A stretch of 63,904 nt of DNA, the filler included, from Parasitella parasitica NRRL 2501 (taxonomy: Eukaryota; Fungi; Mucoromycota): assembly GCA_025201805.1 (NCBI GenBank). It is 8 parts of 8 records of this genome, joined end to end, with 100 filler letters (N's around TTAATTAATTAA, not from the genome) between each part and the next. Parts side by side here need not be neighbours in the genome. Positions count along the whole stretch, not along the records: positions 1 to 26,265 come from MU619304.1; 7 more parts are not named here. One strand, 5' to 3'. Under the pieces are notes generated by a model. That model worked only from the letters and a program-made list of their open reading frames with translations, had not been told where the DNA came from and ran no database searches. The first letter of the stretch is position 1; every line of letters starts with the position of its first letter. The position numbers and the translations under genes were made by a program. This document shows, in pieces, positions 1 through 62,143 of the stretch.

Positions 1-693
1 AATTGAAAAGAAGTAAAAAGAGTTCAAGACAACATTTGTCTGTCAACTAGATCAAATCTTGTCAACCCGATCGAGAGATTTACACATGAGACAACTCCGA
101 AAGAGAATGCACACACATGGATCCCACCTGTTGATATCGCCCGGCTGCCAATGTTGTTATATTGTGTATCAAGACCAGACTCTGTTTTTAATAAATTATA
201 AATACCTAGCTAGTTTTCATCGAAAATATCCTCATTCAGATTTTAACTAAAATGAATCTATACAAAGCTTTCGAAGTACTACTTGTCAATCTACTTTTCT
301 ATCTATTTACCAACTCAATTAATCAACAAACCTGATTGATTTTTTCGATCGCGATACTGATGTATATCAGGCTTTTTTTTTTCTTTTTTGGTAAGAGCAC
401 CCATTTTGGCATTGGGTATAACAATAATAGAAAAACAAAATAACATATTCAATTCATTTTTAGACCTGAGCAGAATTATTTCAGCTATTACTTAAAGGCC
501 TTGTTAGCCAAGTAAAAATTGTACACAAATAAATTTTGACTTTGGCACTTAGATCATAAAGTACTAGAATATGATACAAGTTCTATAAAAGGTTGCTGTT
601 TGCAGGGCTGCGCCCTTAAATTGAACCAAGAAAAAAACTCTTTGAATCTGTTCGGTATAGTTCCACTGTTGTGTTCGTGTCTCGTATTCTCTT

Positions 694-860
694 ATGTGTC
701 CCATTTTCATGTCGATGTCCCACTTTCATATTAACGTCCCATTTTCGTATTCGTCACCCATTTTCCTAGTAGTGGCCCATTTTTGTAATCGTGTCCCAAC
801 TCAATTTGGAAATGACCAAAATTTATTTTCATTGGCCCAACTTAGTTTCGTCAACTGTAA
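694..860 (-). mobile_element. Isolated Tc1/mariner-like transposon end with subterminal repeats
   Basis: About 6 degenerate (G)TCCCATTTT motifs roughly 21 nt apart, ending in ...GTCAACTG-TA (TA-CAGTTGAC on the minus strand). No partner end found. Confidence 0.4.
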
Positions 861-937
861 CGATGTAACCAAGTAAAAAGTTTTCCAAGCCTCTAATTCA
901 GTATTCGGTGCCCCCAGACGAATGGGAATTTCCTGTA

Positions 938-1070
938 TAGTGCGTCTGGTAAAGATTCTTCAAAAACGACAATCATTTTTTAGTTAGGGTCATTTACTTT
1001 TGGGAAACGGACATAATGCTTTTCTGAAATCGTCATTTCTCAAAACGGACAAAATTTACCAGCCGCACTG
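938..1070. mobile_element. 133-bp MITE of the adjacent Tc1-like family
   Basis: Left end TAGTGCGTCTGGTAAA matches the reverse complement of the right end CAGTGCGGCTGGTAAA at 14/16. TA flanks at 936-937 and 1071-1072. The same terminus occurs at 5907-5922. Confidence 0.75.
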
Positions 1071-1758
1071 TATCAATATGAGAAACAATTGGGCTAGATC
1101 TGCCGTAGGAACACCAGCTAGAGTGGAAACCCCGAAACTAGAGTGCCATCCCATACAATTATCGGTGCTACATTCGTCTAGTGTTATCCATGTTGTTATG
1201 AAAAAGCCGCCGCTAAGGAAGGAGAAAGCACATAACAAAAAGGCAGCAGTGGTTAACAAGAAAAAGAGAAAGCTCGACAAAGGGAAAGAACGAGCTTCAG
1301 ATGAGATTATTATGGAAGAACTCATTATAGAGTACGTTGACATTGCAGAGGGTACTGATGAAAGCAATAAGCCAGTACCAAAAGGCACAACCACGGCTCA
1401 TTTTGTTAAATTCATGAGTGAACTCCTTGACATCATGGATCTTGATGGGAGTCTTATGGGAAGCTATCTTGTAATGGATTACTGTTCAATCCATAAATCG
1501 CACCCAATGTTTAGAAAAATTGAAAGTCGAGGTTATAGGGTGATGTACCTGCCCCCTTACTCGCCTGAACTGAATCCCATTGAGCAGTTTTTGGCTATTG
1601 TCAAAGGAAAAATGAAGCGTCACCGGTTGATGACTGAGGAGAATTTGTCGAGCAGAATTGCCGATGCTTGTAATGATATACGCTTTAGTGATCTGTATGG
1701 CTTCTGTGATCATTCTAAACGACAAATCATAAATTGCTACAACAAAACCCCATTCTAA
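1071..1758 (+). pseudogene. Tc1/IS630-family DD34E transposase, C-terminal half (left arm)
   Basis: VMDYCSIHK...LPPYSPELNPIE with 34 residues between D and E. 5'-truncated just after the DEAGF motif, with apparent compensating frameshifts near 1137-1170. Confidence 0.9.
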
Positions 1759-1789
1759 GCATTTTCTTATTTAAAAAAAAATTGTCATC

Positions 1790-1947
1790 ATATTAGTATC
1801 AGTATCGGTATTGGTAGCGGTATCATATTAGTAGCGGTAGCGGTAGCGGTATCGCCTTTTGCTCTTCAAGAAAATGATGACGTATTAGTAGCGGTAGCGG
1901 TAGCGGTAGCGGTAGCGGTATCGGTATCGGTATCGGTATCGCTTTTT
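1790..1947. repeat. GGTAGC/GGTATC hexamer arrays split by a unique spacer (left arm)
   Basis: Tandem hexamers visible directly. Inverted copy at 3846-3955. Confidence 0.95.
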
Positions 1948-1960
1948 TTTCGCCTCGTTC

Positions 1961-2983
1961 ATGAATAATTCCTTATCTCCAAAATCGTGCCCAGGTAGAG
2001 ATCTGATGTCAAAAAGAATCATCCAAGATCCCACTGTCATTAACTACATCACCACGACTTTGGCAAACACTCAAAATGACTACCATGTGGGAAACCCCGA
2101 ATGGAGTGATGGAACGCGTTCGGATGTGGTCTTGGAACCAAAATCGTCGGTTCTTAATCTCCCTTCAATTATTGTGGAAATCCAGCACACCGTTAATCAA
2201 TTGTTTATGAAGAGAGCAGTTAACTACTGCCTACAAGCCTTTAAGAGATACAAGGTGGACCCAATTATTCTGATTGTATGCGTTAATACTTTACATAGTT
2301 ATGTTGTTCAACGTACAATGGCTAGTCGTTTCCCTGGCGGTTATGCCTTCCCCTCCGAACCTTGGGCTGCAGACTGTATTATTCTTTCCAAAGAAAGTCT
2401 TGGTGAAGGCAATATAGATACACCTTTAAACTCGTTGATTGCACTTGGATTGTTTTTTACTAGTCGTGCTCTTTCTATCGTGAATGCTCCTTTTGCTGAT
2501 GACCCAACAATGCAACATTTATACACTTTGGCTTTAAGTCACGAGGAAGATCAGCACAATAATATTTTGTTGCCATTGCTTGAATCCCAAAATCGTGAAT
2601 ATGAGAGATTATTGTCACTTGCCAATACAGTCGGATCACCTGATGTATTGATCCAAGCAATTAATGATGCAAAATCTCGAAATGATAAACTGAAAAGAAA
2701 AGATGATTCAGATCCTGCCGGTTCCTTGTCGAACAAAAGAACAGCAACAGCAACCAACTCTAGCGCCTCCTCCAGCATTAACAACAATAATGATCGATAT
2801 AAACAAGGCATGGATTTTGTTGAGCAATTCAAGCAAGCAAGAATTCAAAAAGGCCATAAAAAAATGGATTGGATAACATGCTTGGAAGAAGGTACAAAAT
2901 TGGGATTGCTGAATTATAAAAATGCCAACGCTCTTCGCAACCAATTTTCGAAGTTCACAAAACAAAAAAGCAAAAATCAGTAA
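1961..2983 (+). CDS. Rpn/PD-(D/E)XK-like nuclease-domain protein with helical C-terminal extension (340 aa)
   Basis: Intact ORF with the pattern RSDVVL...IIVEIQ...FMKRAVNY, resembling the R-x-D...E-x-Q...R-xxx-Y signature of the Rpn/PDDEXK_2 family. Confidence 0.7.
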   Translation: MNNSLSPKSCPGRDLMSKRIIQDPTVINYITTTLANTQNDYHVGNPEWSDGTRSDVVLEPKSSVLNLPSIIVEIQHTVNQLFMKRAVNYCLQAFKRYKVDPIILIVCVNTLHSYVVQRTMASRFPGGYAFPSEPWAADCIILSKESLGEGNIDTPLNSLIALGLFFTSRALSIVNAPFADDPTMQHLYTLALSHEEDQHNNILLPLLESQNREYERLLSLANTVGSPDVLIQAINDAKSRNDKLKRKDDSDPAGSLSNKRTATATNSSASSSINNNNDRYKQGMDFVEQFKQARIQKGHKKMDWITCLEEGTKLGLLNYKNANALRNQFSKFTKQKSKNQ

Positions 2984-3204
2984 AATAAATACTCTTTATT
3001 CAAGATCATGTAATTCAATTTTATCAATCAGTAAATAATAAATAAAAAAAAAAGAATTCATTACGCTTAGAAATTAAGGACGCATTAAAATACCCACTTT
3101 CTATTGTTGTTTAATAAAGTAACCTTTTTCCAGTCTTGTTCAATTTGTTAATTTTTTATACACCTTTTTACGTATCCAAGACCTCTGGTTACATTAACAT
3201 TGCT

Positions 3205-3791
3205 TTAATGAAAGCTATGTATAAGTTGCATCGTGGGATCGCCAATATTTCGCAGCTTCAGTTTCTGTTCTTCATCATCAGAAAAATACAAAGCAAGTAC
3301 CACTAGAGGGTCAAGGTGTTGGCTAGCTTCGTCTTCGCTAAAGCTAATTCCATCTTTGGAGATAACCAGGCACTTTTCCGCCCAGACAGTGCTATTCAAT
3401 GTCTGCCAATGAGGATTTTGTAAATCGGGCGACAACATTGACCTTACTGACAATGGAATCTTGTCAGTACAAAGAAGAACGAGAAAAGGTTGAACGTCAA
3501 TATGGTTCTGTACCTCCAAGCATTTCTCAATTGATCGTTTCAACGATATTTTCGTGACGTTCGGCTGAATCTCCAAAAGGATTGCGCTTGATTGAGCTTG
3601 ATAAAGAATAAAATAGGAACCGTCGGCCAAAAACTCTTCACGAACAAAACTGAATGTAAGACCATCCTCTTTCAAAATTGATTTAGCAACAAGGTTAATG
3701 AAATCCGAGTGCTGTACAGCGTTTATAACTAAAAAATAACGTGAGCAAGTATTCTAACTACCTTACAGGCTTATCTACCTCCATTGTCCAT
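3205..3791 (-). CDS. Short paralog of the 1961-2983 protein lacking the first catalytic Asp (about 178 aa, probable intron 3778-3729)
   Basis: Aligns by eye: LLEIQ/IVEIQ, VWAEKCLVISK/PWAADCIILSK, LDPLVVLALYF/LNSLIALGLFF, DPTMQ/DPTMQ. ATG at 3791 plus a 50-nt GT..AG intron restores the frame. Confidence 0.7.
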
Positions 3792-3845
3792 GTTTCAAGA
3801 GAAATGAAAAAGAGTTAGAAATTAAAGCGAAGGTGGCTTTTTCAG

Positions 3846-3955
3846 AAAAAGCGATACCGCTACCGATACCGATACCGCTACCGCTACCGCTACTAATACG
3901 TCATCATTTTCTTGAAGAGCAAAAGGCGATACCGCTACCGCTACCGCTACCGATA
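3846..3955. repeat. Inverted copy of the hexamer arrays and spacer (right arm), running into the gap
   Basis: Reverse complement of about 1835-1947, including the identical spacer CGCCTTTTGCTCTTCAAGAAAATGATGACGTATTAG. Confidence 0.95.
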
Positions 3956-4935
3956 NNNNNNNNNNNNNNNNNNNNNNNNNNNNNNNNNNNNNNNNNNNNN
4001 NNNNNNNNNNNNNNNNNNNNNNNNNNNNNNNNNNNNNNNNNNNNNNNNNNNNNNNNNNNNNNNNNNNNNNNNNNNNNNNNNNNNNNNNNNNNNNNNNNNN
4101 NNNNNNNNNNNNNNNNNNNNNNNNNNNNNNNNNNNNNNNNNNNNNNNNNNNNNNNNNNNNNNNNNNNNNNNNNNNNNNNNNNNNNNNNNNNNNNNNNNNN
4201 NNNNNNNNNNNNNNNNNNNNNNNNNNNNNNNNNNNNNNNNNNNNNNNNNNNNNNNNNNNNNNNNNNNNNNNNNNNNNNNNNNNNNNNNNNNNNNNNNNNN
4301 NNNNNNNNNNNNNNNNNNNNNNNNNNNNNNNNNNNNNNNNNNNNNNNNNNNNNNNNNNNNNNNNNNNNNNNNNNNNNNNNNNNNNNNNNNNNNNNNNNNN
4401 NNNNNNNNNNNNNNNNNNNNNNNNNNNNNNNNNNNNNNNNNNNNNNNNNNNNNNNNNNNNNNNNNNNNNNNNNNNNNNNNNNNNNNNNNNNNNNNNNNNN
4501 NNNNNNNNNNNNNNNNNNNNNNNNNNNNNNNNNNNNNNNNNNNNNNNNNNNNNNNNNNNNNNNNNNNNNNNNNNNNNNNNNNNNNNNNNNNNNNNNNNNN
4601 NNNNNNNNNNNNNNNNNNNNNNNNNNNNNNNNNNNNNNNNNNNNNNNNNNNNNNNNNNNNNNNNNNNNNNNNNNNNNNNNNNNNNNNNNNNNNNNNNNNN
4701 NNNNNNNNNNNNNNNNNNNNNNNNNNNNNNNNNNNNNNNNNNNNNNNNNNNNNNNNNNNNNNNNNNNNNNNNNNNNNNNNNNNNNNNNNNNNNNNNNNNN
4801 NNNNNNNNNNNNNNNNNNNNNNNNNNNNNNNNNNNNNNNNNNNNNNNNNNNNNNNNNNNNNNNNNNNNNNNNNNNNNNNNNNNNNNNNNNNNNNNNNNNN
4901 NNNNNNNNNNNNNNNNNNNNNNNNNNNNNNNNNNN

Positions 4936-5732
4936 TTTCGGGGTTTCCACTCTAGCTGGTGTTCCTACGGCAGATCTAGCCCAATTGTTTCTCATATTGA
5001 TATTAAATCCAGCCTCATCGATAAAAATGCAGTTTTTTGTTTTGTCTAAATCTGAGTCTTTCCATTTCATGAACAATTCATATCTTGTCTGCAAAGTTTT
5101 CTCAGAATTCCTTGCCTCAGGTTCGAAGCTAGGCTTCTTGACAGAGATGAGCATATTATTTTTCAAATGATGGTTGAGTTGAGGCTTCGAAATGATGAAG
5201 TCCATGAACTGTATAGTCAAAGATTCAATGATATCGTCAGCATAAAGCTGAGGATCTTCGTCAAGTAATTTTTGAATATACTCCTCGTGCTCGATCTTAA
5301 ACGAACTTGGTCGACCAAAATTCATTTTCGACTGCTTGTAAGGTATTTCTCCAGTCTCTACGTAACGATCCCACCATCGTTTGGCAGTACGAGGATGTAC
5401 ACCAAATGTCTTTGCATAGTAAGTTACCAGTCCCCTTTGCATGGGACTCTCAATCATTCGATCTATAAATAGTTCCCATGTTTGGTCACTATAGTTATTG
5501 TATACTGCTTGGGTGTTTTGCTTGGCAGCTTTGGGCTTTTCAGCTGTATTCTCAGTGGTTGCCTTTTCTTGGGGCTTAAGACTTAAGTAAGTCTTTTGGC
5601 TTGTTATTGTTTCCAGAACAATGTTGGGATCGGTGATATCGGTTAAGACACCCTCCATTGGTCAAGGACTTTCTCTCCTTGTTCGTTGTAAACGTTTTCT
5701 TGTTCATCTTCGTAAAAAAAGGTGTTTGTCAT
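4936..5732 (-). CDS. Tc1/IS630-family transposase, N-terminal half (right arm, runs into the gap)
   Basis: HTH region (AKTFGVHPRTAKRWW) and CIFIDEAGFN. 4936-5002 is the exact reverse complement of 1071-1137. The probable ATG at 5732 is one base out of frame with the ORF starting at 5658. Confidence 0.88.
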
Positions 5733-5809
5733 TGCAAAATTTGATATAAAGGCAAAAGAAAAGGGAAAGCTTCAGGGACATATGTATTTCGCCAATTTGA
5801 CTTAACTCA

Positions 5810-5922
5810 AAACGACAATTACTAAAGCACAAGCCAACAAATACATTTTTAATAACCGACAATCATTTTTGGCTAAACGACATTTATTTTTTGCAAACCG
5901 ACAAAATTTACCAGCCGCACTG
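5810..5922 (-). mobile_element. Terminal inverted repeat with subterminal CGACA repeats; TA target at 5923-5924
   Basis: TA-CAGTGCGGCTGGTAAAATTTTG on the minus strand, a typical Tc1 CAGTG terminus. Confidence 0.85.
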
Positions 5923-6457
5923 TATCTAGCGAGCGAATACCCTTATCAAGTTGTAATCATGTAGACGCAATATTGCCGGCCCTCTAAAACAATGGTAATA
6001 TAAGCCTTAAACGGTTTACGATTTTTAAGTCAAAGTAAAGTATGTCTCCAAACTGTAAATAATGGGAGCTATACCCTGAGTAACTCTTGATGCTTTAAGA
6101 TAAAATGTGAACCTATAGAGTAACTATAAGCCTGTGGGTCCTTTGAATCGTATAAACTGCATTGGATCTTGGAGAATTGATAATCAATGAACACAGTTTA
6201 TACACAATGAACGCGCATTTCAGCGTATTAGACATTTTCATGGACACCATCTTTTAACTATGATGATAATGGCTAAATGACGACCTACACATCATGAGAT
6301 CAGGCTCATTGCTTAGCGCATTCAATTAAAATACATTTACAGGTTGTCCTATTAAAAATTCATTCTAGCTCTGTCATGTGCCAAAATCTGGCAATATATA
6401 ATCAGTCAGGAAGAACATGTATTTTTGCTCTTTCCCAAACATTAAAAACGAAACGAA

Positions 6458-7435
6458 ATGGATACCTTGCCTAATGAAATATTGTCTGCCATATTCAACC
6501 AAGTTGGATTGGAGTCGATAGTGAAATTAGCCGAATGTCGATTAGTTTCTTCGCTTTGGGATCAACTTTCCGCGCAAGTATTGTTTAGTCAAACGGTAGA
6601 TTTGAGAACGAACGGGCAGATTGCCAAGTTTAATTACCACTTGGCCAGGAAGCCAGCGCTTGCTCATTTCATCCAGTCAATCCATCTGTCCGATTTAAAC
6701 CCTCCTTTGTCATTCCAACGCGAGTTTCTCAGTTTGGCATTGACACCAAATATCAGGTATTTGACAGGTGAAGTGAATGAGGAATTATTTTCTTGTTTAC
6801 TAGATGTGGCTAAAAGATCAGCAAAGGCTGGAGAGAAATTCTCCAAGCTTCAAGTGTTGCCGGAGCTATCTTTAAGGGAACCTTTTGGACCACGAGTATT
6901 TCTAACTGTGCAAGATGTATCAACCTCGTTGATGCATGTTAAACAATCTTTATTGCATACCAAATACTTTCATATCGCATTCCATTTCAAAGAAAGTTTG
7001 AGAGAGTTAAGTATCTCACAGTTTCCGGATCCTACGAAAACGATGAAGACGTTCTTTGCTCACCTGAATGAGTTCAAGAGTTTGACCAACCTCACTTTGA
7101 ATTTCTTTGACGTGTTCCCCGGTGACCAGTGTCATGGTTTCCTTGAACTGGACAAAACTCTCAACAAGTGCGAACATCTGCAGTTTCTTAGACTCAGATG
7201 GTACAGCGCTGACGAACGTTCAATGGGAACAGCCGAATTCCAAGAATGGCTTTCAAGCAATGTTATGAAAGTCCCAGGCCCTCTTAAACTTGAACTGGCA
7301 GGCGTATCGATTTCTCATGTAACAGAGTATCTTGTCCACAAGTACCCCAATATCTCTTCAGTGCGGCTTTCAAGCCTTACGCTCAGAGAAGTGCGCGTTA
7401 TGAATGCAATTGCGCACATCGATAGGGAGTTGTAA
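6458..7435 (+). CDS. F-box protein with LRR-like body
   Basis: N-terminal LPNEILSAIF...CRLVSSLW F-box pattern, then LxxLxL repeats. Possibly truncated at the C-terminus. Confidence 0.8.
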   Translation: MDTLPNEILSAIFNQVGLESIVKLAECRLVSSLWDQLSAQVLFSQTVDLRTNGQIAKFNYHLARKPALAHFIQSIHLSDLNPPLSFQREFLSLALTPNIRYLTGEVNEELFSCLLDVAKRSAKAGEKFSKLQVLPELSLREPFGPRVFLTVQDVSTSLMHVKQSLLHTKYFHIAFHFKESLRELSISQFPDPTKTMKTFFAHLNEFKSLTNLTLNFFDVFPGDQCHGFLELDKTLNKCEHLQFLRLRWYSADERSMGTAEFQEWLSSNVMKVPGPLKLELAGVSISHVTEYLVHKYPNISSVRLSSLTLREVRVMNAIAHIDREL

Positions 7436-7499
7436 GAATGCTCAAAATCGAAGAAATAGTCTTTCGTTTTATTGTTTAAGCTATGCTATAATTTTTTTT

Positions 7500-7690
7500 A
7501 TATGACCTACATTTGTATGCTTTTTATATGACTTACACTTGTATGCTCTTTAAGTGGACCATATATGTCTCTATATGCCCCACATATGCTCTTTATATTA
7601 CCACTATGCTTTTAAGTGGCCTACATATGTCCTTATATGACCCACATACGCTCTTTATACGTACGACTCATTTACCTGTAATATTCGTAT
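7500..7690. repeat. Degenerate tandem repeat, about 20-25 nt unit
   Basis: Recurring TATGACC(T/C)AC and TATGCTCTTTA motifs. Confidence 0.6.
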
Positions 7691-7881
7691 TTAAACCTCG
7701 TAAATTATGTTTCCATGTATAAATAAAAAAATGTTGTAGGCCAAAAAAAAAAAAAGTATTAAAATTCGCAAATGCAATAATGTTTAGGTAGTTATAAAGT
7801 TGTAGATACAAGGAATCTCTGCAATGCTTTGTTAATGATCAAGGATTCAAGTTCCATGTGCAATCCAACATGATTCTTTTA

Positions 7882-10291
7882 TTACTTTTTACTTCCAAAC
7901 CATCCACCGTTCCCGGGCTTCTTACTATCATCACCTCCTCGCTCAGGAATTTCAATCTTGCAAATGCGATGCTTTTTATCTAATGCCTTGTCAACCACAA
8001 TATGAACGCGCCCGCCATCCAAAACATCGTCATTCTCGTTGGCTTTAGCAATGAGGTTGACCACCTTTCGTTCTACTTCATACTTGATGCTACGGGCACC
8101 ATAACGAATATTATAGCCATCCGACAATACATCTACGACCTCAGGGTCCCATGTCATTGTGATGCCATGGCGCGCCCTTGCCTTTTCAGCCCACCTCGAA
8201 AGTTCCCTAGAGGTAATTTCGCGCAATTCTTCCTCGCTGAAAGGCAGAAAGAACAGAACTTCATTGATACGACCTAAAAATTCATCACGACGAAAGTGCT
8301 CATAGAGGATGGGGTGTATAACGTGCTCGATAAACTGACGGGAGAGCGAGATTTGGCGTTGTACCTGATCGGCTGCTTCTTCTGATTTGGGTTTCTTGTT
8401 CGGCTCGACTACAGCAGCAGTGCCCGTCGTTTGAGCATCTGAAGACACAGAGGCTTCTAGTCGCAGCAGCTCCGCTTCATCCGCAATTTCATGCTGAGCC
8501 AAATTGGATGTCATGACAAAAATGGCGTCCTTGCATTCGACTGTCGTACCTTTACCATCAGTTATACGACCTTCATCAAACAATTGGAGCATGATAGTCA
8601 ATACATCTGGGTGTGCCTTTTCAACTTCATCCAGTAAAACAACCGCATTGGGGCCTGTGATAGGTAAATGTTAGATACGCCCATCTTTTCTTGTATTGTA
8701 TAGAGGCGTTCATACTTACACTCCTTGAGTTTTTCTGTCAGCTGGCCACCCTCGTCGTAGCCCTGTACACCATCAAATTGATTGGTATGGTTTAAATGCA
8801 TTGCCTTGAGATACTATGTACTTACCACATAGCCTGGCGGAGAGCCAATAAATCGAGAGACATCATGCTTATGCTGAAACTCACTCATGTCTATGCGGAC
8901 AAATCCCTTATCCAATTGCTTGCCATGGAGATGTTGTGCAAGAGCTACGAGAATACCGTTGAGTCATGGAAATCAGGGTGTGTGTGGCAGATACTCATCT
9001 TACCCTTTGCAAGCTCCGTTTTGCCTACACCAGATGATCCGCAGAACAAAAATACAAGGGGATGCTCTTCGTCGTGCCATCCGTTTTGCTTACGTCTAAT
9101 CGCGCTAGCAAGAGCGTGGATTGGGCCCAACTGGCCCACAATGCGAGCCTTCAGAGCGTCTTCCAACGGGTGCTTTTTTCGGTACTCTTTGTCTTTCAAG
9201 AGCTGAGCTTTTCGTAGACGTTCATCATGCTCTGCCTTATCTTTCGGGAACGAAGTCTCTTTCTCTATGCGACAGAGGGACAGAGGTTATGGGTAGGCTC
9301 TCATATGCAAATAGTGGACCTACTGTGCAGCATTTCCTCGATTTCTGTATTTTGCTCGCCTGTGAATCGCTCGACATAGTACAAATATTCGCGAGGTGTC
9401 AGTCCATGTGAATTACGAACCAAAGGATCAGCAAAATGATCCAACAAAAGCTTTACAATGCTGGGGTTACATATAATAACTGCGTAGTGAAGAGCAGTGT
9501 ACTCTCGATAATCTCTGTACGGCAAGAGGTCTTCAGAGAAGTCGACTTGACGAATGTTGGCGGCTTGATGGGATCGGGGATAATACTGATCCTCCAGATT
9601 GGGATCTGCAAAAATGTGCTGAATTGGTGATCATCGTCCTGGCAACTAGCGTTTTTTTTTTTTCGACATACCTGCCCCCTTTTCCAACAAGAACTTGACC
9701 ATTGGCTCATTATCTTGAATCACAGCTACTTGCTACCAAACGAAAGCTTGAGTGGAAATATCAAGCCTGGAGTGTGCAGCAAAACTTACCAATGGCGTCC
9801 AGCCGTATCTGTGATATACATTGGGACTAAAGTTTGGGTCTTCTGCCAACCTAGCCACCGTTAAAAAATGCGTGTGATATATATAAATGTACGTCGGAAA
9901 CCCCATTTTCTTTACCTTTTCAATGCCTTTAAATCATTCTGTACGATGGCTTGACAAATGGAATCACCCAAGGCTACAATGAAATGTGTCAATATGATGC
10001 GCATGACTGGGGATATTTCGAGCACTAGTTACAGTCATTTGCTTCCAAAGCCAAGACGTTGTTATCCAAGAGTCCATACGTTAGAGCTGCTGCCGTGAGC
10101 ACAGCGGATGTCTTCCAGAGACTCGAGAAATAGCGTGTTTTCTGCTGTTGCGTGGCCACTACGGCCGCAGTTGCAGTTGAAATGGTTTTAATTGTCGCTG
10201 GAAATGCGGATTTAGACGTTGGAAGCGAGCATGGTCGTCCAACAAGAGTGCGCACAGACACCCTATTTTGCAATAGCCTTAGTCGCAACAT
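7882..10291 (-). CDS. CLPB: Mitochondrial ankyrin-repeat AAA+ disaggregase, CLPB/Skd3 type (multi-exon)
   Basis: Arg-rich presequence, ankyrin motifs (TALHYAV), [58 protein letters not shown]. Confidence 0.9.
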
Positions 10292-25385: not shown

Positions 25386-26365
25386 CTTGATTATAAAAAG
25401 TAATATTTATGAAGAAAGAATCTTTTTTCTATTATGAAAATTTTGATCTCTTTTCAATCAAAATTGCAAAGAATCTGTGACATTGCAAAAAAAAAAAAAA
25501 AAAAAAAGCATATTAGTTTAACACGAAAAGCAGCCATTGTATTTAAGCTTTTTGGTTCATGCAAGCCACACCTTAACTTTATGATTGCCATACATGCCCA
25601 ATGAGAACTTTTTACATCGTTGTTATGGTTACATCAAAACGGGGGCTATTGCTTTGATCTTACTGTAACCACGACGGCATTTTTGATATCTCAAATTTTT
25701 AGACATACTTTTTTTTCTTTTTTCATTTTGTTTTTCTTCCTCCACTTAAAGCCCGAGGATATCAATCAATTTTCAATATGAAATGCTAGCAAATTTTTGA
25801 CATGAATGAGAAAAATTTGGTTGTTTCAAATAATATAAGATATAAACTCAAATAACTTGTCTCCGTTGCCTTTGAGACTCCTTGGCATCCATATTTTTCA
25901 AATCGGAGATGGGGTTCAATATCGACTGTTAGAAAATTGTACTTACTATCATATGCAGAGATCAATAAGGTGGTAGTCTTGTCTATGCTTTTCCACCATG
26001 GATAATTTTAGTATTGATTGATAAATGTTGTAAAAGGAGAGCTAATATTGCTATTCTATCTTACTCTCTCCACATATTCCCATTGATAGCAATTTGGATG
26101 ATACTGTTGTATCAACCTAAAAGAGTAACATTATAACCCAGTCGGCTTAAGTTTTCCACTCCTTTCATTCATCCTCTATAAATCAAATCTCATGGTAGGA
26201 TTGCATAAAAATCTTATTTTTACGACTAACACAGCTTGAACCGGACCTTTAATTTTCCCCGTTTTNNNNNNNNNNNNNNNNNNNNNNNNNNNNNNNNNNN
26301 NNNNNNNNNTTAATTAATTAANNNNNNNNNNNNNNNNNNNNNNNNNNNNNNNNNNNNNNNNNNNN

Positions 26366-27894
26366 CTTTCCAATGCACTTTATACAAGAAGTTACCAGGT
26401 GTTCCCTTGTGATCAATCACTGCTTGAATTTCAAATCTTTCATTGCAAAATTCATCAACAGACACAGGCTTTTGATTAGCAGCAGCCTTATACACAATAT
26501 GATGAGTTGGAACATCTCTACTAAGCAACGCACCAGTTCTATCCATCAAGACATAAGAACCATTAGCGGTAACATTATGAATCCGATAAGGACCTTCACA
26601 ACGTTCATCCAATTTATTTTGACGATCAACATTCTTGATCATAACCTGACTACCAATTGGATACGGTGCATCAAGTACTTTATGCTTCTTAGCAAAGTAC
26701 TTATGATCTTCGCTTTGCGTTTCTAAAATCCTTTTAGACAACGCAGGGATCAACACATCATGAACAAATTTATAACGTTCATTGATCAATTTGGTGTCAG
26801 CTTCTTCAAGACTCAGCGTTGGCTCCAGATCTGAATAATCTTCCAACATATTAGGTTGTCTATTAAATACCATAGCAAACGGACGAGATTTGTGCAATCT
26901 AGCATACTTGATATTTATACAAAAGTTGACCCAAGGAATATAACTTTCCCATTGATCACGTTTTCCTTTTAGCAACTTGATAGTTATCCCCTTCACAAGT
27001 TTCACATACGATTCAGCTACACTGTTGCCAAGAGGATTATAAGCAAGGCTCAAAAAGCGGCTTATTCCACTAATCTCCAACATTTCAGTAACAACATTTC
27101 CAAGAAACTCGGTAGTACCACGATCCATGGACAATGCTTTAGGAAAACCAAACAAAGCAAACACTTGCAATAGTTCTTTAGCGACACTAGAAGCACGTTT
27201 ATCAGGCAGCAAACATCTTTGTGCAACTGATTTTCCACATGTTTGACGCCATAGTGTCCCAACAAATGAGCACGAATAATCAGAGTGTCTCTTTGATCAG
27301 CAGGAGGAGTCATATACTCAGCAAACTTGAGTGCACGAAGAACTAATTCGTCCCGAAGAGTTTCCTTACTCTTTTTCGAATTCGACAGCACTCCATTGTT
27401 TGGCACTCTTTGACCATTTGCATGTGATATTCCCATGAATTTCACAGAGTTTTTCTTTATGCCACCCTCTTTTACAGAAAGGATATCTTTAGCTTTTCTT
27501 TTGTTCACATACATATTCTTTGTATTTTTTGCCTTTTTTCCACCATTAGCATAACTGCCCCCAACAAGATGATGAGCTTCAGCATTATCATCTTCATACA
27601 GTCGAGACAAAGCATCAGAAATACAGTTTAAAATACCAGGAATATGCACAACATCAAAGTCATACGCGAAAATCAATTCGTACCAGTTCAACATCATACT
27701 GTTAGGCGTGTCCTGAACATTAAGATAAATCAACGACTTATGGTCAACATGCAAGGTAAAACGACGCATATACAACCATCGATGAAACTTCTTAAAAGTG
27801 TACACAATAGCTAACAATTCTCGTTTAGTGGTAGAATAGTTACGTTCAGCTACAGATAACTTGCGCGACACCATACCAAGATAACGAATTTCGT
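26366..27894 (-). mobile_element. Ty3/gypsy pol fragment: RNase H, integrase (internally deleted), start of chromodomain
   Basis: AERNYSTTKRELLAIV, DHKSL, HLLGHYG, GPY motif, EIQAVIDH...YKVHWK. Bounded by gaps. Confidence 0.92.
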
Positions 27895-28099: not shown

Positions 28100-29900
28100 T
28101 TCATTATCTTTTTTGATCCAACAACAATATTCCTACCCACCGTGAAAAATGGTCCCCAAGGTACTGCAACACATTAATGCACAGAAACTGAAGAAGGTTA
28201 TTCTGATGACTCCAGAGTGGACAACGCAATTTTGGTTCCCGATGCTCCTCAGGATGCGACAGTTGGACACCCCAATCTCTTACAAATACCACAAGATGCG
28301 ATTAACCGCGTGGTTATTATCAGGGAAGCTAGACAAAAGAAAGGTCTAACAATGGAAGTAAGCATGTTGTATTTGAAGGGAGACATAAGAGAAGAAGGAA
28401 CCGCAAGAGTCTATGATAATGGTTGGAAGAAGTGGACAACCTGGAGCTTAGAACATAACATTGATTACTGCGTATATGATAGTGAAAATATAGTTCGTTT
28501 CCTCATTGCTCACAAGCATTACAGCCCACAACATCTTAATACCATCAGATCTGCCATCAGCTTGGTTTTTAAACATATGCATTCAGAGAAGCCAAACATT
28601 GCTACTACAACAAGAACTCAAGACTTTTTTGCAGCAAGAAGGCGAAAACAGATCCAAATTCCAAGTTTACACCAACTGGAGACATGGGATACCAACATCC
28701 TTGTAAAGTTCATCAAGACAAAATGATACAACACAGAGAGCTTATCTACTGAAATCTTACAGTGGAAGACGATGGCTTTACTCTGTTTAGCTACAATGGC
28801 AGAACCACGATTGGACATGGGATGCTTTGCAAAGACGATATATGATTTTTTGATTGAGCACTGATGAAGTGGTTCGAGTGCCGTTTTACATTTCAGACGG
28901 GCAAAAGAAACCTAAGTTAAATCAATTACCATTGGAATATATTGAATGATGTCAACATTGTTTAGAATAACAAAATATAGCCAGAAAAATACAATTAGAA
29001 CTGAATATATTTATTTTGCTATAATTCCAAGATTGAATGCCGATTTAAACTAGTGTATGTTTTGAAGGTATTTATAGTTATTTGACAGTGCCGCAGCAAT
29101 AGGACCATGATCTAGGATGAGGGATAATTGGGTACACCTTGAACCAATCCCTAGGAGCTTGGTGGATAAGAGTTTCCGAGTTACCAGTAAGACAAGAGCA
29201 TAGATACGTATAAAGGATAGAATGTTGTTCCTGGTAGCTTTGATGGAAGAACATTCATCAGGATTAAACACCGACCTCAGGAACCAAATGTCATAGGATA
29301 TTACCACTTTTTACTGGGATAAAGATTCGCCATTCAATGTTACCACTTATGTCTCTTTGCCATGTCTAAATAAAGTCATTCCATTCTACTACGCATTTCT
29401 ACTCATGCTCGCTTTATGATGTATTATACAGAGTATAATACATTACCGCTAAGATTTGATCTGTATCCTAAACAAACATCTGCCCTGCCAATACTTTGCT
29501 GAAATTTGTGGAAAGATCGTCGCCGTTGAGAGAACAGTTGGATGAAGACCATACATTGTTCTTAAGATATATAAATATAATACTACCAAGGTATCTTCAA
29601 TTCGACCATCCACATTATCCAACTGGCTCATGGAAGTAATGCAACAAGCGGGCGTGGACAAAGCGTACAAAGCACACTCTATCCGGGCAGCCGCAAGCAC
29701 AAAGGCGGTCGAAAGGGGACACAAGATCAACTCCGTCAAAAAAAAACATTTCTTTTCATTACAAACCGACTGCCGCAAGTTCTACAAGTACACAAATCAC
29801 CAATTCAATTTTTACAACTGAGAGCCGTATCACATTAGGAGCTGAAGCAGAGGAAACTGAGATTGTTGTAGGTACGACCAACAATCAAGATGTTTCCGAA
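28100..29900 (+). mobile_element. Degenerate DIRS-like tyrosine-recombinase retrotransposon
   Basis: VILMTPEWTTQFWFPML, TARVYDNGWKKW and YKAHSIRAAASTKAVERG. Contains stops and is split by a solo LTR. Confidence 0.8.
28959..29474. mobile_element. Solo LTR (516 bp) with AACAT target-site duplication
   Basis: TGTTTAGAATA...TATCCTAAACA termini, AACAT at 28954-28958 and 29475-29479, second copy at 60809-61065. Confidence 0.9.
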
Positions 29901-30117: not shown

Positions 30118-31062
30118 TTACAATGGTTCGCGATTTAAGCATATAGCAAACTTGTTGTCAAAATATCTAGCAAAGCCCCCAAAATCACTGTAAAGAACTT
30201 GATTGATTGCATCAGAGATTCTTGCGGTCAGGTCCTCCTCAGCAAGAAGCCTTATTCGTTTCAGCTTGCTTTTCACCACTGACCAGAACTGCTCAATTGT
30301 ATTCAGTTCTGGAGAATATGGCGGGAGGTATACGCAGCCATATCCTCTGCTCTCGACGTACTTTCTTATATCCTCGTTGGTGTGGATAATCATCCATCAC
30401 CAAATAAGGGCCCTCGAATTGCGGATGCTTGTCGAGAATATCGATAGTCTTTGCAATAAAGTTGAAGCTGATGGCGTACTTTTCGGTTGCAAAATTGTAC
30501 AAAGCCGTTATGGAGACTTTAAGATCCTCGAATTGTTCTGTCAAGTTGCTCATCATTTCGTCTAGGGCTATCGAAGCATGTTCATTGATTAAGTTGACTA
30601 AGAACTTTTGTTGTTCGTCATTAAATTTGGATGGCTGTCCAGGCCTTCCGCTACCTGCCCTTCTCACAATCTCTCCTTGAGGAACCTCTTGATCTTTTTT
30701 GACCCAATTTTGAGCAGTGCGTGGATTAATACGAAGCTCCAAAGCCGCAGCGCGAAACTCTCTTGCCTTTCTCAAACACTAAATAAAAGAGCGTCTCCTT
30801 CTCAGAGGGCTTGTAGCTCCTATAAATTCGAATGGTTATCGTTACTATATCCTTATCATCTGTGCCTTCATCGACTTTTTTTGTTGACATAATTTACATC
30901 TCTCCCAGGAGGTTTGAGTTGGGTATATTCATCAAAATTCGTGACATTTTGAAGAGGATACGCCTCATCATCGACTTCCATTTGAATTACAGAGATTTTG
31001 TTTCCTCGATCATCAAAAGTTCCTCCCATTCCATCCTCATGTACACAACCACTCTGCATTGT
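30118..31062 (-). pseudogene. Tc1/IS630-family transposase pseudogene (frameshifts, internal deletion)
   Basis: INPRTAQNWVK HTH, YLVMD, YLPPYSPELNTIEQFW. The DExGF motif is missing. TGACCAAAT repeats at 31141-31195. Confidence 0.88.
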
Positions 31063-34021: not shown

Positions 34022-34549
34022 TTAAAAGAAACCTTGCTTGTAAGCAAGACCGCCAATAGCCAAACCAAGAGCGTAGATGATAATGGCATAGAGGCCACGA
34101 GCATAACGGTTATCGATGATTAGTTCAAGGACAAACCAGACGACGGCAACAGCAACAATGAACCAAGTGATAATCATAACAGCACGAGTAGAAGCACGGG
34201 CAAATGTATTCATGGAAAGTAAACAGACAAGAGAGAAGAGAGCGTCCTTGACAACTTGGTAGCCTCTTTCCAAGCGAGGAGCAAATGTACCTTGCATAAC
34301 AGGAGCCTTCAAATAGAACTTGCTCTTGTGAGTCGCTTCAGCTGCAGCCGTATCCGTTGCAGTAGCAACTTCTGGTTCAGTCGTTGTAGAAGAAACAGTT
34401 TGCCCAACAAAGAATGATCTGACTACCCAGATCAAGCCCCAAATGACCCATAATGTCATGAATGCAATCCAAGTAACACGGACATGCCAGTCTTGAACGA
34501 ATGCAGTTTCGGTAGCGTAAACAGAGTCAGTAGCAGCAGAGTCAGACAT
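34022..34549 (-). CDS. Uncharacterised multi-TM membrane protein (paralog A)
   Basis: 175-aa ORF with hydrophobic helices and a close paralog on the opposite strand. Confidence 0.85.
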   Translation of the reverse strand: MSDSAATDSVYATETAFVQDWHVRVTWIAFMTLWVIWGLIWVVRSFFVGQTVSSTTTEPEVATATDTAAAEATHKSKFYLKAPVMQGTFAPRLERGYQVVKDALFSLVCLLSMNTFARASTRAVMIITWFIVAVAVVWFVLELIIDNRYARGLYAIIIYALGLAIGGLAYKQGFF

Positions 34550-35581: not shown

Positions 35582-36109
35582 ATGTCTGCTAATAATACCA
35601 TTGCTGCTGCTACCGGAATCAAAAACTTCATCTACGCCTCTGAAACTGAATTTGTTCAAGACTGGCATGTCCGTGTTACTTGGATTGCATTCATGACATT
35701 ATGGGTCATTTGGGGCTTGATATGGGTAGTCAGGTCATTCTTTGTCTCTTCTAGTACGACTGAATCTGAAGTCACTGCTGCTTCTACCGATCCAGAAGTC
35801 TCTCACAAGAAATCCTATATCAAAGCGCCTACTATCAATGGCTCGTTTGCTCCTCGTTTGGAAAGAGGATACCAAGTCGTAAAGGATGCTCTTTTCTCTC
35901 TTCTTTGTTTACTTTCCATGAATACATTTGCCCGTGCTTCTACTTATGCTGTCATGATTCTTGCCTGGTTTTTTGTTGCATTTGCCGTATTCTGGTTTGG
36001 CGTTGAGCTTGTCGTTGATAACCGCTACGTTCGTGTTCTTTACACTGTCATTTTCTACGCCCTCGGCTTGGCAATTGGCGGTCTTGCATACAAGCAAGGT
36101 TTCTATTAA
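35582..36109 (+). CDS. Uncharacterised multi-TM membrane protein (paralog B)
   Basis: Shares FVQDWHVRVTWIAFMTLWVIWGLIWVVRSFF and other blocks with paralog A. Confidence 0.85.
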   Translation: MSANNTIAAATGIKNFIYASETEFVQDWHVRVTWIAFMTLWVIWGLIWVVRSFFVSSSTTESEVTAASTDPEVSHKKSYIKAPTINGSFAPRLERGYQVVKDALFSLLCLLSMNTFARASTYAVMILAWFFVAFAVFWFGVELVVDNRYVRVLYTVIFYALGLAIGGLAYKQGFY

Positions 36110-59915: not shown

Positions 59916-60708
59916 AAATGAAATAGTGAACGTATACAAGAGTAAAGGAATTGAAGTTTATGGTCTAACATCTGACAACATTAGTAAAGAATATAATAAA
60001 GTAGTAGTTGCTTTAGATGTTGCATATAAAAATAACACACCCATAATATTAATCGCTACAAATGTGGTTGAGACAGGTGTCACGCTAAATATAGACAACA
60101 TTTTTGACACTAGTATGAAAATGAAGCCGATTATCAATTATGCAGATAAAACAATATTGACTACTACTATACCAATCAGCGAGCAAGAATCAGTGCAACG
60201 TAGGGGACGGGTTGGTAGAACGCGTGCAGGGAATTATGTCTTTAATCCAGTGAATTATACCAATTACGAAAGTCTGGATCAAATAGAAAGATTTGCAGCT
60301 TACGTACGTTGTCTCAAATGCAAATTAATAGTGGATGACTACTTTTATGAAGAAGCGCAGTTGATTGGTAAGATTACAGATATTAAAATCAAGAACTTGT
60401 TAGCAAGCACACTACATCCTCTTATGACTTTGGGCATGCTAGATGAGCAAGGGGCGTTTTATTACAATTATTTTGAGTTTAGACAATACATGACTGAAAT
60501 GGATGTAGAAAGCAAAGTGTTCAATAAAAGTTTGTTGCCTAGGGGAGCTATATCGAACTTTGAGAAAATGAACATAACAATAAAGGATGGTAACATATCA
60601 AGGGATGTGTTGATTAATGTTCCTCTCTCAGATTACATGATGGACCCAAACGTGTTATATGCTTTGTTTGAGAAAACTATTAGTCCAGAACATGTCAAGA
60701 AAATTCAA
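59916..60708 (+). CDS. Potyvirus-like CI (SF2 RNA helicase) C-terminal half, endogenous viral sequence in the -1 frame of gag
   Basis: ILIATNVVETGVTLNID (motif V), QRRGRVGRTRAG (motif VI), then a segment resembling the potyviral CI C-terminal domain. No stop before the gap. Confidence 0.8.
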
Positions 60709-60808
60709 NNNNNNNNNNNNNNNNNNNNNNNNNNNNNNNNNNNNNNNNNNNNTTAATTAATTAANNNNNNNNNNNNNNNNNNNNNNNNNNNNNNNNNNNN
60801 NNNNNNNN

Positions 60809-61065
60809 ATCCTTTATACGTATCTATGCTCTTGTCTTACTGGTAACTCGGAAACTCTTATCCACCAAGCTCCTAGGGATTGGTTCAAGGTGTACCCAAT
60901 TATCCCTCATCCTAGATCATGGTCCTATTGCTGCGGCACTGTCAAATAACTATAAATACCTTCAAAACATACACTAGTTTAAATCTTCATTCAATCTTGG
61001 AATAGCAAAATAAATATATTCAGTTCTAATTGTATTTTTCTGGCTATATTTTGTTATTCTAAACA
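60809..61065 (-). mobile_element. Partial second copy of the 28959-29474 LTR (inverted)
   Basis: Near-identical reverse complement of 28959-29218, ending in ...TTCTAAACA followed by AACAT. Confidence 0.9.
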
Positions 61066-62143
61066 AACATGAGAGTTGAGTTTTTTGATAATCTTAAACG
61101 GGCCGATTCTTCTATGATCAAGTTTCTTGGTTGGTCTCATGGATGTGATGTTCTTTGTGTTGATGTAAACTTCATTACCAATGTCAAGACCTTGGGTTTG
61201 TCTTTTACTTTTGTTGTAGTACAGGGCTTACGATTTTTAAGCGCGAGAGATGTTGATTTTACTTTTCTGCTGAACATCTTTTAACTTGTTTAAAAACTCA
61301 TCTGACGCTGGAGCGCATTCGCTATCCCCCTTCTTGATATTTATGTCCGCTTTGGGATGATATCCATAATTGCTGAAGAAAGGTGAGTATTTTGTGCTGG
61401 ATTGACATTGGTTGGTGTAACTAAATTCAGCCATAGGTAGAAGGTGAGACCAGTCAGTCTGTTGATAGTTGCAGTACATTCGAAGATACTGCTCTAAAAT
61501 AGAATTGGTTCTTTCTGTTTGGCCGTCAGTTTCTGGTCTGGAAGCAGTTGACATGTTTGCCTGAATATTTGTAAACTCTTGAGAAGAAGCTGTTTCCAAA
61601 ATTTGGATGTGAATAGTGCGCCTCTATCCGACACATTTGAAGTTGGTAATAAGCCATGCAGTTTGAAGATATTATGGATGAATATGGTTGCCAATTCTTT
61701 TGCCGACATATTTTCGTTACAAAGGACAAAATGGGCCATTTTGGCCAATCTGTCAACTACGACAAATATGCTAAATCGAAACCTTGATTTTGGTAATTTG
61801 ACAATAAAGTCCATGCTAATTGGTTCCCAAGGTCTGTTTGGAACTTGGAGAGGCATGAGAGGGCCTTGTGGGGCTTGCCTTGATGGTTTACCACGAATGC
61901 ATGTCTAACAGTTGGCTACATCATAGCGGTTTACAAATTTTGTCATACCTTTCCACCAGTAATTCCTTGAGAGAAGTTCAGCTGTCTTAAAACGGCCAAA
62001 ATGACCTGAAGTAATTTTATCATGATGCATTTTCCTCAATTTCAGTTTGATTTCGTTACTGTCAGGTACATAAATCAATTAATTTTTTAGCAGTAGTAGT
62101 CCAAAATCTTCATCGATAGAGTAATTTCTAAATCTGTTAATGG
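61066..62143 (-). mobile_element. Degenerate Ty3/gypsy integrase region
   Basis: PWEPISMDFIVKLP, VVVDRLAKMAHF, SDRG, PETDGQTERTN and a GPF motif, with frameshifts. Confidence 0.9.

Follow-up and report, generated by a model that had tools for sequence, protein, structure and literature searches.

In bacterial composite transposons such as Tn5 and Tn10, cargo lies between inverted, transposase-bearing modules whose outer ends face inward. A comparable layout is found at positions 938-5922 of a 63,904-nucleotide stretch of the genome of the fungus Parasitella parasitica NRRL 2501 (Mucoromycota; GenBank assembly GCA_025201805.1; hereafter the window, to whose positions all coordinates refer), where two halves of a Tc1 transposase face inward from opposite strands around a repeat-bounded core. 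Described eukaryotic systems of this kind include the long terminal inverted repeat (TIR) mariners Rpmar49 and Rpmar17 of Rhodnius, non-autonomous elements in which one end is replaced by an inverted copy of the other and transposase sequence lies within the long repeats, as is proposed here (PMC4678618). The maize Mu killer and the composite insertions of Ac likewise combine an inverted transposase duplication, a junction at a transposon end and a possible hairpin RNA (PMC3440606; 10.1101/2020.01.07.897926). Inverted transposon duplications have been found to trigger silencing in maize (10.1101/2020.01.07.897926), while Mariner copies are targets of RNA interference (RNAi) in Mucor lusitanicus (PMC9963178). 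In the Tc1-MP1 group of the Mucoraceae and Rhizopodaceae, Tc1-MP1 itself carries a 41-bp 3' untranslated region (UTR) followed by a 141-bp TIR (PMC9977792).

Unlike Rpmar49 and Rpmar17 (PMC4678618), the P. parasitica structure would have the whole transposase (~1.8 kb) in its arms and, between them, other genes over 1.9 kb, and amplification of its rearranged form is conjectural, while the maize insertions belong to superfamilies other than Tc1 (PMC3440606; 10.1101/2020.01.07.897926). Its layout is like that of Tn5 and Tn10, but the modules are incomplete: composite transposons are defined by two complete flanking elements, each with both TIRs (PMC9977792), and here no inner TIR is visible and the left arm is without the transposase 5' half. 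Our preferred explanation, to which a probability of about 55 % is given, is that template switching gave a Tc1-nuclease hybrid its second, inverted arm, and that the end of a MITE (miniature inverted-repeat transposable element) subsequently truncated the hybrid at a TA. The array-bounded nuclease cassette that forms the core is a more novel part of the structure than the palindrome.

Inverted Tc1 halves and the MITE-like left end

The transposase 3' half on the left and the 5' half on the right, read as mirrored arms in the first-pass annotation, are borne out by a DDE_3 match (Pfam, E 1e-16) on 1071-1758 (+) and by weak helix-turn-helix (HTH) matches on 5732-4936 (-), and the right end closes in a perfect TIR ending at 5922 and a TA, again as had been noted (Table 1). 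The edges of the sequence gap also match the left arm in inverted orientation, as claimed: when the window was compared with itself, 4936-5002 proved identical to the reverse complement of 1071-1137 (67/67, E 8e-29) and 3852-3950 97 % identical to that of 1831-1929 (E 7e-42). A direct repeat further links 1043-1074 with 5895-5926. TIRs beginning with CAG and adjoining a TA, as is typical of Tc1, are perfect at 5922 and 1070, both in the same orientation, and carry two changes at 938; these are the only three sites in the window with a TA and the 16-mer TIR at up to two mismatches, against a mean of 0.0 in 100 shuffles. Both arm/core junctions have the microhomology GAAAAA in common.

Table 1 Features of the 938-5922 structure (window positions)
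Feature	Position	Strand	Evidence or remark
TA, left end	936-937	.	likely the MITE's own target duplication; flank-MITE join 830-1069 bridged in X1 and X2
MITE-like unit, 133 bp, same TIR family	938-1070	.	self-comparison, TIR count
Tc1 DD34E transposase 3' half, starts at internal TA	1071-1758	+	DDE_3 match
3' UTR remnant, 28 bp, then no Tc1 3' TIR	1759-1786	+	
Left hexamer arrays, three blocks	1787-1948	+	
ORF1, intact, 340 amino acids	1961-2983	+	predicted PD-(D/E)XK fold and C-terminal HTH-type domain
10-bp inverted microhomology pair, 2576-2585/2827-2836	2576-2836	.	strand switch in two M. circinelloides models
ORF2, convergent ORF1 paralogue	3205-3791	-	protein comparison
Right hexamer arrays, inverted copy of 1826-1948, entering gap	3846-3955	-	
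Gap, 980 N; probably inverted transposase 3' half and array start	3956-4935	.	
Transposase 5' half, same transposase; last 67 bp = 1071-1137	4936-5732	-	HTH match
Tc1 5' end with perfect TIR (to 5922) and subterminal repeats of 21 bp	5733-5922	-	
TA, right end	5923-5924	.	

The mirror claimed for the two arms, possibly a fold-back with long, transposase-containing arms, is visible over 67 bp and about 100 bp, and any remainder would fall in the 980-N gap. The gap edges uphold this claim, but nothing of the transposase 5' half or of the Tc1 5' end is present in the left arm, and the arrays of the two sides differ. That the gap hides the rest of the inverted copy, that is the transposase 3' half and arrays, appears quite probable from the sequence, as its two edges run, consistently oriented, into opposite ends of a single 880-bp segment, although an exact mirror would take 688 bp rather than 980 N. 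It is made plausible also by the sequencing runs, for which positions 480-1762 were compared with the contigs of four of 24 runs (X1, X2, X8 and X9) and contig depth was taken as a rough copy estimate: in X1, the 3' half stands at about three times single-copy depth and its MITE-joined form at about one.

Both transposase halves are damaged. The catalytic residues, with the first D at about 5019 in the 5' half and the second D at 1477 and E at 1582 in the 3' half, are spaced as DD34E (34 between D and E), which together with the N-terminal HTH identifies a Tc1 transposase of the IS630-Tc1-mariner type. The 5' half starts with an ATG at 5732 and is frameshifted by 1 bp near 5661, while two small deletions near 1134 and 1168 in the 3' half (net -3 bases) scramble about 11 codons. 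Relative to its relatives, conserved motif positions of the 3' half are altered after the second D (N>Y) and after the E (W>L). Full-length relatives recovered by protein search, including those of Rhizopus, measure 442-478 amino acids and share 44-67 % identity. The hexamer arrays begin 28 bp past the transposase stop, with no TIR between stop and core, as the first-pass annotation had it; with the frameshifts at 5661, 1134 and 1168, this copy has neither the intact frame nor the own 3' TIR of an autonomous simple Tc1 element. Apart from its TIR sequence, the transposase fits the Tc1-MP1 group of the Mucoraceae on sequence comparison. Shared features are the DD34E motif, an HTH-type N-terminus, TA ends and a 5' leader of similar length (190 bp, 201 bp in Tc1-MP1), whereas the P. 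parasitica element has another TIR sequence, is frameshifted and, in place of a 3' TIR past the stop, continues into arrays and a nuclease cassette (PMC9977792). Among transposase proteins exceeding 423 amino acids, a search returned six plain transposases and no fusion with the core. Frameshifted pieces of another Tc1 transposase occur at 30130-30745 (-), with 51 % identity to P0049 in the DDE part and no recognised TIR.

Judged from its sequence, the left end at 938-1070 is a separate MITE-like unit with its own TIR pair, joined to the transposase at an internal TA. Its left TIR is degenerate (14/16) and its right TIR is perfect and shares 23 bp with the 5' end of Tc1. The subterminal repeats of the unit, spaced by about 21 bp, are decayed and resemble those at 5810-5905, and the TA that directly follows the unit opens the transposase 3' half. 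Many further ends of this TIR family exist in X1 and X2 (depth ~730 at 1039-1081). In both runs, the join of flank and MITE is bridged over 830-1069 with zero differences at single-copy depth. Position 1071 is exactly where the transposase contig of X1 starts; its depth is about 3.2 times (range 2.8-3.9) that of single-copy sequence, and a 56-letter record at single-copy depth matches 1045-1100. In X2, by comparison, a 1646-letter contig at about five-fold depth runs unbroken across 1071, its 931 upstream letters beginning like the 5' half. X2 thus likely has the MITE at this site without the MITE-transposase join, from which it would follow that the MITE is older than the join and that the TA at 936 is the MITE's own. 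The first-pass proposal that 938-5922 is one element which inserted in one piece is not sustained by these contigs. The length of the X2 transposase contig suggests, furthermore, that the copies in this run are without a long mirrored 3' TIR. Both X1 and X2 lack the TA at 1168, which indicates that the collapsed copies are frameshifted, while X9 has an open frame over 1092-1554, with all four letters of the P0007 type (see below) in that span. The lack of cover at 867-995 in X9 was not counted as evidence.

Upstream of the MITE-like unit, the left flank (480-859) belongs to another high-copy, Tc1/mariner-like repeat family with a different TIR ending at 857 and a TA at 858-859. It contains 19-bp tandem repeats (696-798), and its summed contig depth of 6600-8000 near the end in X1 and X2 marks the locus as a nest of elements.

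The predicted nuclease family and the hexamer arrays

The first-pass annotation treated the core as cargo; far from being passive host DNA, this core is a repeat-bounded cassette of a nuclease family. Open reading frame 1 (ORF1) has no Pfam match above cut-off, and a profile search of PDB sequences returned coiled-coil noise only. Its predicted structure (mean pLDDT, the predicted local distance difference test score, of 80.8) has an N-terminal restriction endonuclease (REase)-like fold, with NucS (Z 8.4, root-mean-square deviation [rmsd] 3.3, 101 residues aligned), AF1548 (Z 7.2) and McrC (Z 6.9) as structural matches. The top five Foldseek rows for the model are nucleases as well, all at E values of at least 0.006 and none reaching 0.001. 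The PD-(D/E)XK core fold is recognisable in the predicted structure, with the predicted catalytic residues E32, D40 and E58-x-Q60 (numbered from the Met at 2006), which are retained in 116/138, 131/139, 145/154 and 144/154 family proteins, respectively. The canonical Lys of (D/E)xK is thus replaced by Gln in 144/154 family proteins, presumably as in the YhgA/Rpn proteins. The C-terminus is predicted to form a three-helix HTH-type domain (domain model pLDDT 85.7) that resembles GT-1 (Z 6.7, rmsd 2.1, 61 residues aligned), tied with the HTH of TopoVI-A (6.5); Foldseek gave no matches for this domain model. Some family members match DUF2887 (6/51) or the YhgA-like Transposase_31 (2/51) weakly. 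On these models, ORF1 is a predicted PD-(D/E)XK nuclease with an HTH domain.

ORF2 shares 28 % identity with ORF1 over 127 amino acids (E 6e-14). Neither the core Asp nor the HTH domain is present in it, and a candidate ATG lies at 3791, with a 50-bp intron (3778-3729). Its sequence makes it a likely dead paralogue of ORF1. The notion that ORF2 is the cut-off end of a zinc-finger gene, as in the P. parasitica model P0002, was dropped as unproven, P0002 being possibly a fused model and ORF2 having its own candidate ATG.

The ORF1 family within the Mucoromycota comprises 20 near relatives and 859 clusters at 50 % identity (E up to 0.001), and Mucoromycota clusters are found in the ESM Atlas at 0.96-0.98. 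It is multi-copy within one genome, and its clusters remain at least 90 % alike across genera (clusters 5 and 10): one 90 % cluster unites six Benjaminiella entries with Blakeslea, Mucor mucedo, M. saturninus and Choanephora, a second unites three Rhizopus species, M. hiemalis and Blakeslea. From this distribution the family looks mobile. P0001, on another record, is 99 % identical to ORF1 and ends differently. Metagenome contigs yielded one locus of 1017 bp with a 33 % ORF1 relative without flanks, while the GTDB contigs yielded 0/54 and 0/50 candidate stretches and the viral collection one chance-level match, 0/28 and no TIR matches. The model P0065, a relative of ORF1, ends in a zinc-ribbon tail that we take to be TnpB/Fanzor-like, a hint that the ORF1 family also occurs beside other mobile nucleases.

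Crinkler proteins with REase-fold domains have been discussed in connection with transposons (PMC5289972), and the fish CRN-like gene AACRNL is carried by flanking hAT/mariner ends (PMC12957317). The REase-fold toxin domains of the Crinkler (CRN/CR) proteins and the YhgA/Rpn/DUF2887 nucleases (PMC5289972) share with ORF1 the predicted PD-(D/E)XK fold and the transposon neighbourhood, but ORF1 is array-bounded, has a C-terminal HTH-type domain and shows no CRN header, NTPase or kinase domain. A Crinkler effector combines a header domain at the N-terminus with a toxin module, for instance NTPase-HTH-REase. ORF1 is therefore not a Crinkler as such, its nuclease fold starting from residue 1 of the model and no header or NTPase being matched in Pfam.

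The left arrays consist of GTAGCG/GTATCG units in three blocks and close with a run of T; the ORF1 ATG follows 12 bp further on. Each array points into an ORF of the family, at 12 bp from ORF1 and about 55 bp from ORF2. Among 23 family models with an N-terminal extension of at least 12 amino acids, four have G-x-G-x-G just before the start, compared to 0/1373 background windows. This motif is the expected read-through of GGT-N3 repeats. Identity to ORF1 is 48-76 % among the four models, two of which resemble each other closely, and the evidence consists of translations. Read-through of similar repeats ahead of related gene models thus suggests that the arrays belong in cis to the ORF1 family rather than to Tc1.

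Formation of the structure and competing explanations

The order Tc1 3' half, arrays, ORF1, without a Tc1 3' TIR, is common to the window and one gene model of Mucor circinelloides (P0007), which reads from the DDE 3' half through SGSGIG into ORF1 and whose Tc1 part is identical in 122/128 residues (95 %). The Tc1-array-nuclease join in the M. circinelloides gene models is 95-97 % identical. Towards its end, P0007 switches to the opposite strand at 2585/2836, while P0026, on a 6.2-Mb contig of M. circinelloides, follows ORF1 through 2836 and then runs backwards from 2584. The two junctions are complementary and fall on the same 10-bp inverted microhomology. By this sequence evidence, P0007 and P0026 are an arm-spacer-arm fold-back with a different centre, and the Tc1-nuclease unit has thus folded back at least once elsewhere.

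In the window, the 3' end of a damaged Tc1 transposase continues into a hexamer-array/nuclease-family cassette. In our preferred explanation, the right arm would have been copied from the left, the template switch falling either on the GAAAAA microhomology or inside the inverted arrays, giving a unit of about 5.5 kb with the Tc1 5' TIR at both outer ends that could be moved by transposase in trans. A MITE would already have been at the site, and its perfect right TIR would have been joined to TA 1071 by an adjacent deletion or by one-ended transposition, the MITE end thereby removing the outer half of the left arm. Since only a degenerate TIR remains on the left, this copy is probably stuck. 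Putatively, ORF1 binds the arrays through its predicted HTH and nicks or cuts DNA, and read-through over the arms may yield a hairpin RNA that would direct the Mucorales RNAi machinery against the family.

Template switching with later truncation is supported by the gap edges, which match both ends of one segment in consistent orientation, by the P0007 join, the second fold-back in P0026/P0007, the association of the arrays with the family and the X1 and X2 contigs. Support comes also from the described long-TIR mariners with one end replaced by the other (PMC4678618). A different assembly, furthermore, records ORF1 (P0025) and the F-box protein of the right flank (P0055) on one 170,121-bp contig; two other genes of the window, which here lie within one 16,576-bp piece, are recorded on 213,054 bp. 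That assembly, which may draw on the same reads and is silent on the content of the gap, would thus also link the core to the right flank. The F-box-like gene itself (6458-7435, +) is a single exon that forms a 90 % cluster of one, with a best relative at 45 %.

Several observations weigh against this explanation. The gap sequence is unseen, its 980 N exceed the 688 bp expected, and the right edge departs from the left arm over the last 5 bases before the gap. The inner array block has 9 units on the left and 7 on the right in differing order, so that either the copying lies some time back or each side had its arrays natively. A Tc1 piece is present in only 1/189 ORF1-family proteins. The 56-letter record of X1 spans 26 and 30 letters on its two sides, below the 31-letter rule, and X1 may be the strain of the window; the missing join in X2 is deduced from an unbroken contig, among the matches listed, and depth gives a rough copy number. 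In X9 the 3' half stands at about 1.05 times single-copy depth, such that two transposase arms are not general. Lastly, template switching fails to explain the P. parasitica model P0002, in which a zinc-finger region is joined to ORF2 and ORF1 on a single strand, so that the arrangement of the core differs there; the N-terminus of P0002 has nothing above 0.8 in the ESM Atlas.

Core sequence is held by seven of the 24 runs, which contain at least 0.61 of the words of 1-3955 and so exceed the maximum of 0.52 attainable without the core. X8 contains 0.47 of these words and, over 480-1762, short pieces of distant Tc1 elements only, 4/5 of them less than 90 % alike. By arithmetic, X8 would have the core without this Tc1, but this was not counted, a hole in contigs proving nothing.

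An unlikely alternative to template switching is an assembly chimera, in which the arrays, the transposase and perhaps also the core occur in several copies, a contig ending in the core was joined to one starting in the transposase at another locus and no palindrome exists here. Both contigs end within repeats, the gap size misfits the mirror (980 N vs 688), the transposase has about 3-5 copies in X1 and X2, the P0001 record provides a 99 % ORF1 copy with a different end, and the window is a linker-joined pseudo-scaffold. The seven linkers (44N-TTAATTAATTAA-44N, at 26266, 27895, 44571, 46715, 59576, 60709 and 62740), which account for the 100-bp 'inverted repeats' of the window, all lie outside 938-5922. 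A chimera sits poorly, however, with gap edges that run, correctly oriented, into either end of a single repeat, with ORF1 and the F-box gene on one contig of the different assembly and with inverted arrays that flank the core inside one contig.

Somewhat less likely again is that the core is an element in its own right, with the arrays as native terminal repeats, ORF1 as a mobilising or maintenance protein and ORF2 as its inactive partner, and with Tc1 added to the two sides separately or through recombination between two Tc1-cassette hybrids. The arrays that precede even distant ORF1 relatives and point into family ORFs are consistent with this, as are the retained catalytic residues (D40, E58 and Q60, at the counts given above) and a large family that is multi-copy in one genome and at least 90 % alike across genera. 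No free-cassette DNA with ends or a target duplication was seen, however, and the GAAAAA microhomology and the different upstream exons of P0002 allow the right array to be a secondary copy. Moreover, no eukaryotic cut-and-paste superfamily is known to have a PD-(D/E)XK-type transposase.

Least probable is a mobile composite family that inserts as a unit with ends at 938 and 5922 and one transposase per arm, as bacterial composite transposons do. A TA and an inward-facing TIR at both ends, the inverted arms and the ~5 full transposase copies in X2, on a contig that seemingly includes the whole 5' end, agree with it. Against it, a MITE that carries two TIRs of its own forms the left end and in X2 occupies the site with the join apparently absent; the left TIR, in addition, is degenerate, frameshifts affect both halves, X9 is single-copy and neither a second copy nor an empty site was found. 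The other copies with the same two arms and the empty site proposed as a check in the first-pass annotation were not seen on the four sets of run contigs (480-1762) or in the contig collections, and a mobile two-transposase family is unproven.

Tc1/mariner horizontal transfer is reported to be common in the Mucoromycotina (10.1101/2025.06.16.659975). Here, the decayed element copies are 95-97 % identical in M. circinelloides, whereas two host proteins of the window are 93 % identical to P. parasitica, with no M. circinelloides in their 90 % clusters. Set against this host divergence, the sequences suggest horizontal transfer between a Parasitella-related fungus and M. circinelloides, on a thin yardstick of two genes (8/10 host proteins looked up had no entry) and the F-box search. 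Transfer to P. parasitica is not claimed, the host being close to P. parasitica by the same two proteins.

Other features of the window and implications

Elsewhere in the window, fragments of RNase H, integrase and chromodomain lie between two linkers at 26310-27874 (-), which we take from their motifs to be Ty3/Gypsy-like. An 80 % inverted repeat at 34022-34549 (-) and 35582-36109 (+) corresponds to divergent paralogous genes for 175-amino acid membrane proteins; it was rejected as a transposon, the gene pair being also adjacent in P. parasitica (CEP08019/CEP08020). Positions 28958-29218 and 60809-61066 form a 98 % inverted match of 261 bp, one copy of which starts at a linker, and may represent a repeat or a misplaced contig end. 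A helicase-like ORF at 60115-60756 (+) enters a linker.

No account of an array-bounded nuclease cassette or of a transposase-armed Tc1 in the Mucorales was found in the open literature, represented mostly by titles and the starts of abstracts and including the surveys PMC5751038, PMC7011435 and PMC4877112. The boldest interpretation, which we regard as doubtful and advance tentatively, is that the cassette is an undescribed, horizontally spreading unit of the Mucorales, made up of inverted GGT-N3 arrays and a PD-(D/E)XK nuclease with an array-binding HTH, which moves itself or recruits Tc1 ends and which, with Tc1, builds transposase-armed palindromic composites of bacterial type; these would have been transferred between M. 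circinelloides and a fungus related to Parasitella.

If the gap holds the mirror, the structure would be a natural eukaryotic Tc1 with whole-transposase arms around cargo, and a composite-like element could arise in one fold-back step. It would then also be a candidate hairpin source for RNAi in fungi in which Mariner is under RNAi control (PMC9963178). Of greater importance, the core points to a large nuclease-fold family of the Mucorales, with its 859 clusters at 50 % identity, no Pfam entry, a conserved upstream array and members at least 90 % alike across genera. The genes of this family may be selfish passengers of Tc1 or may encode the transposases of a new class of elements.

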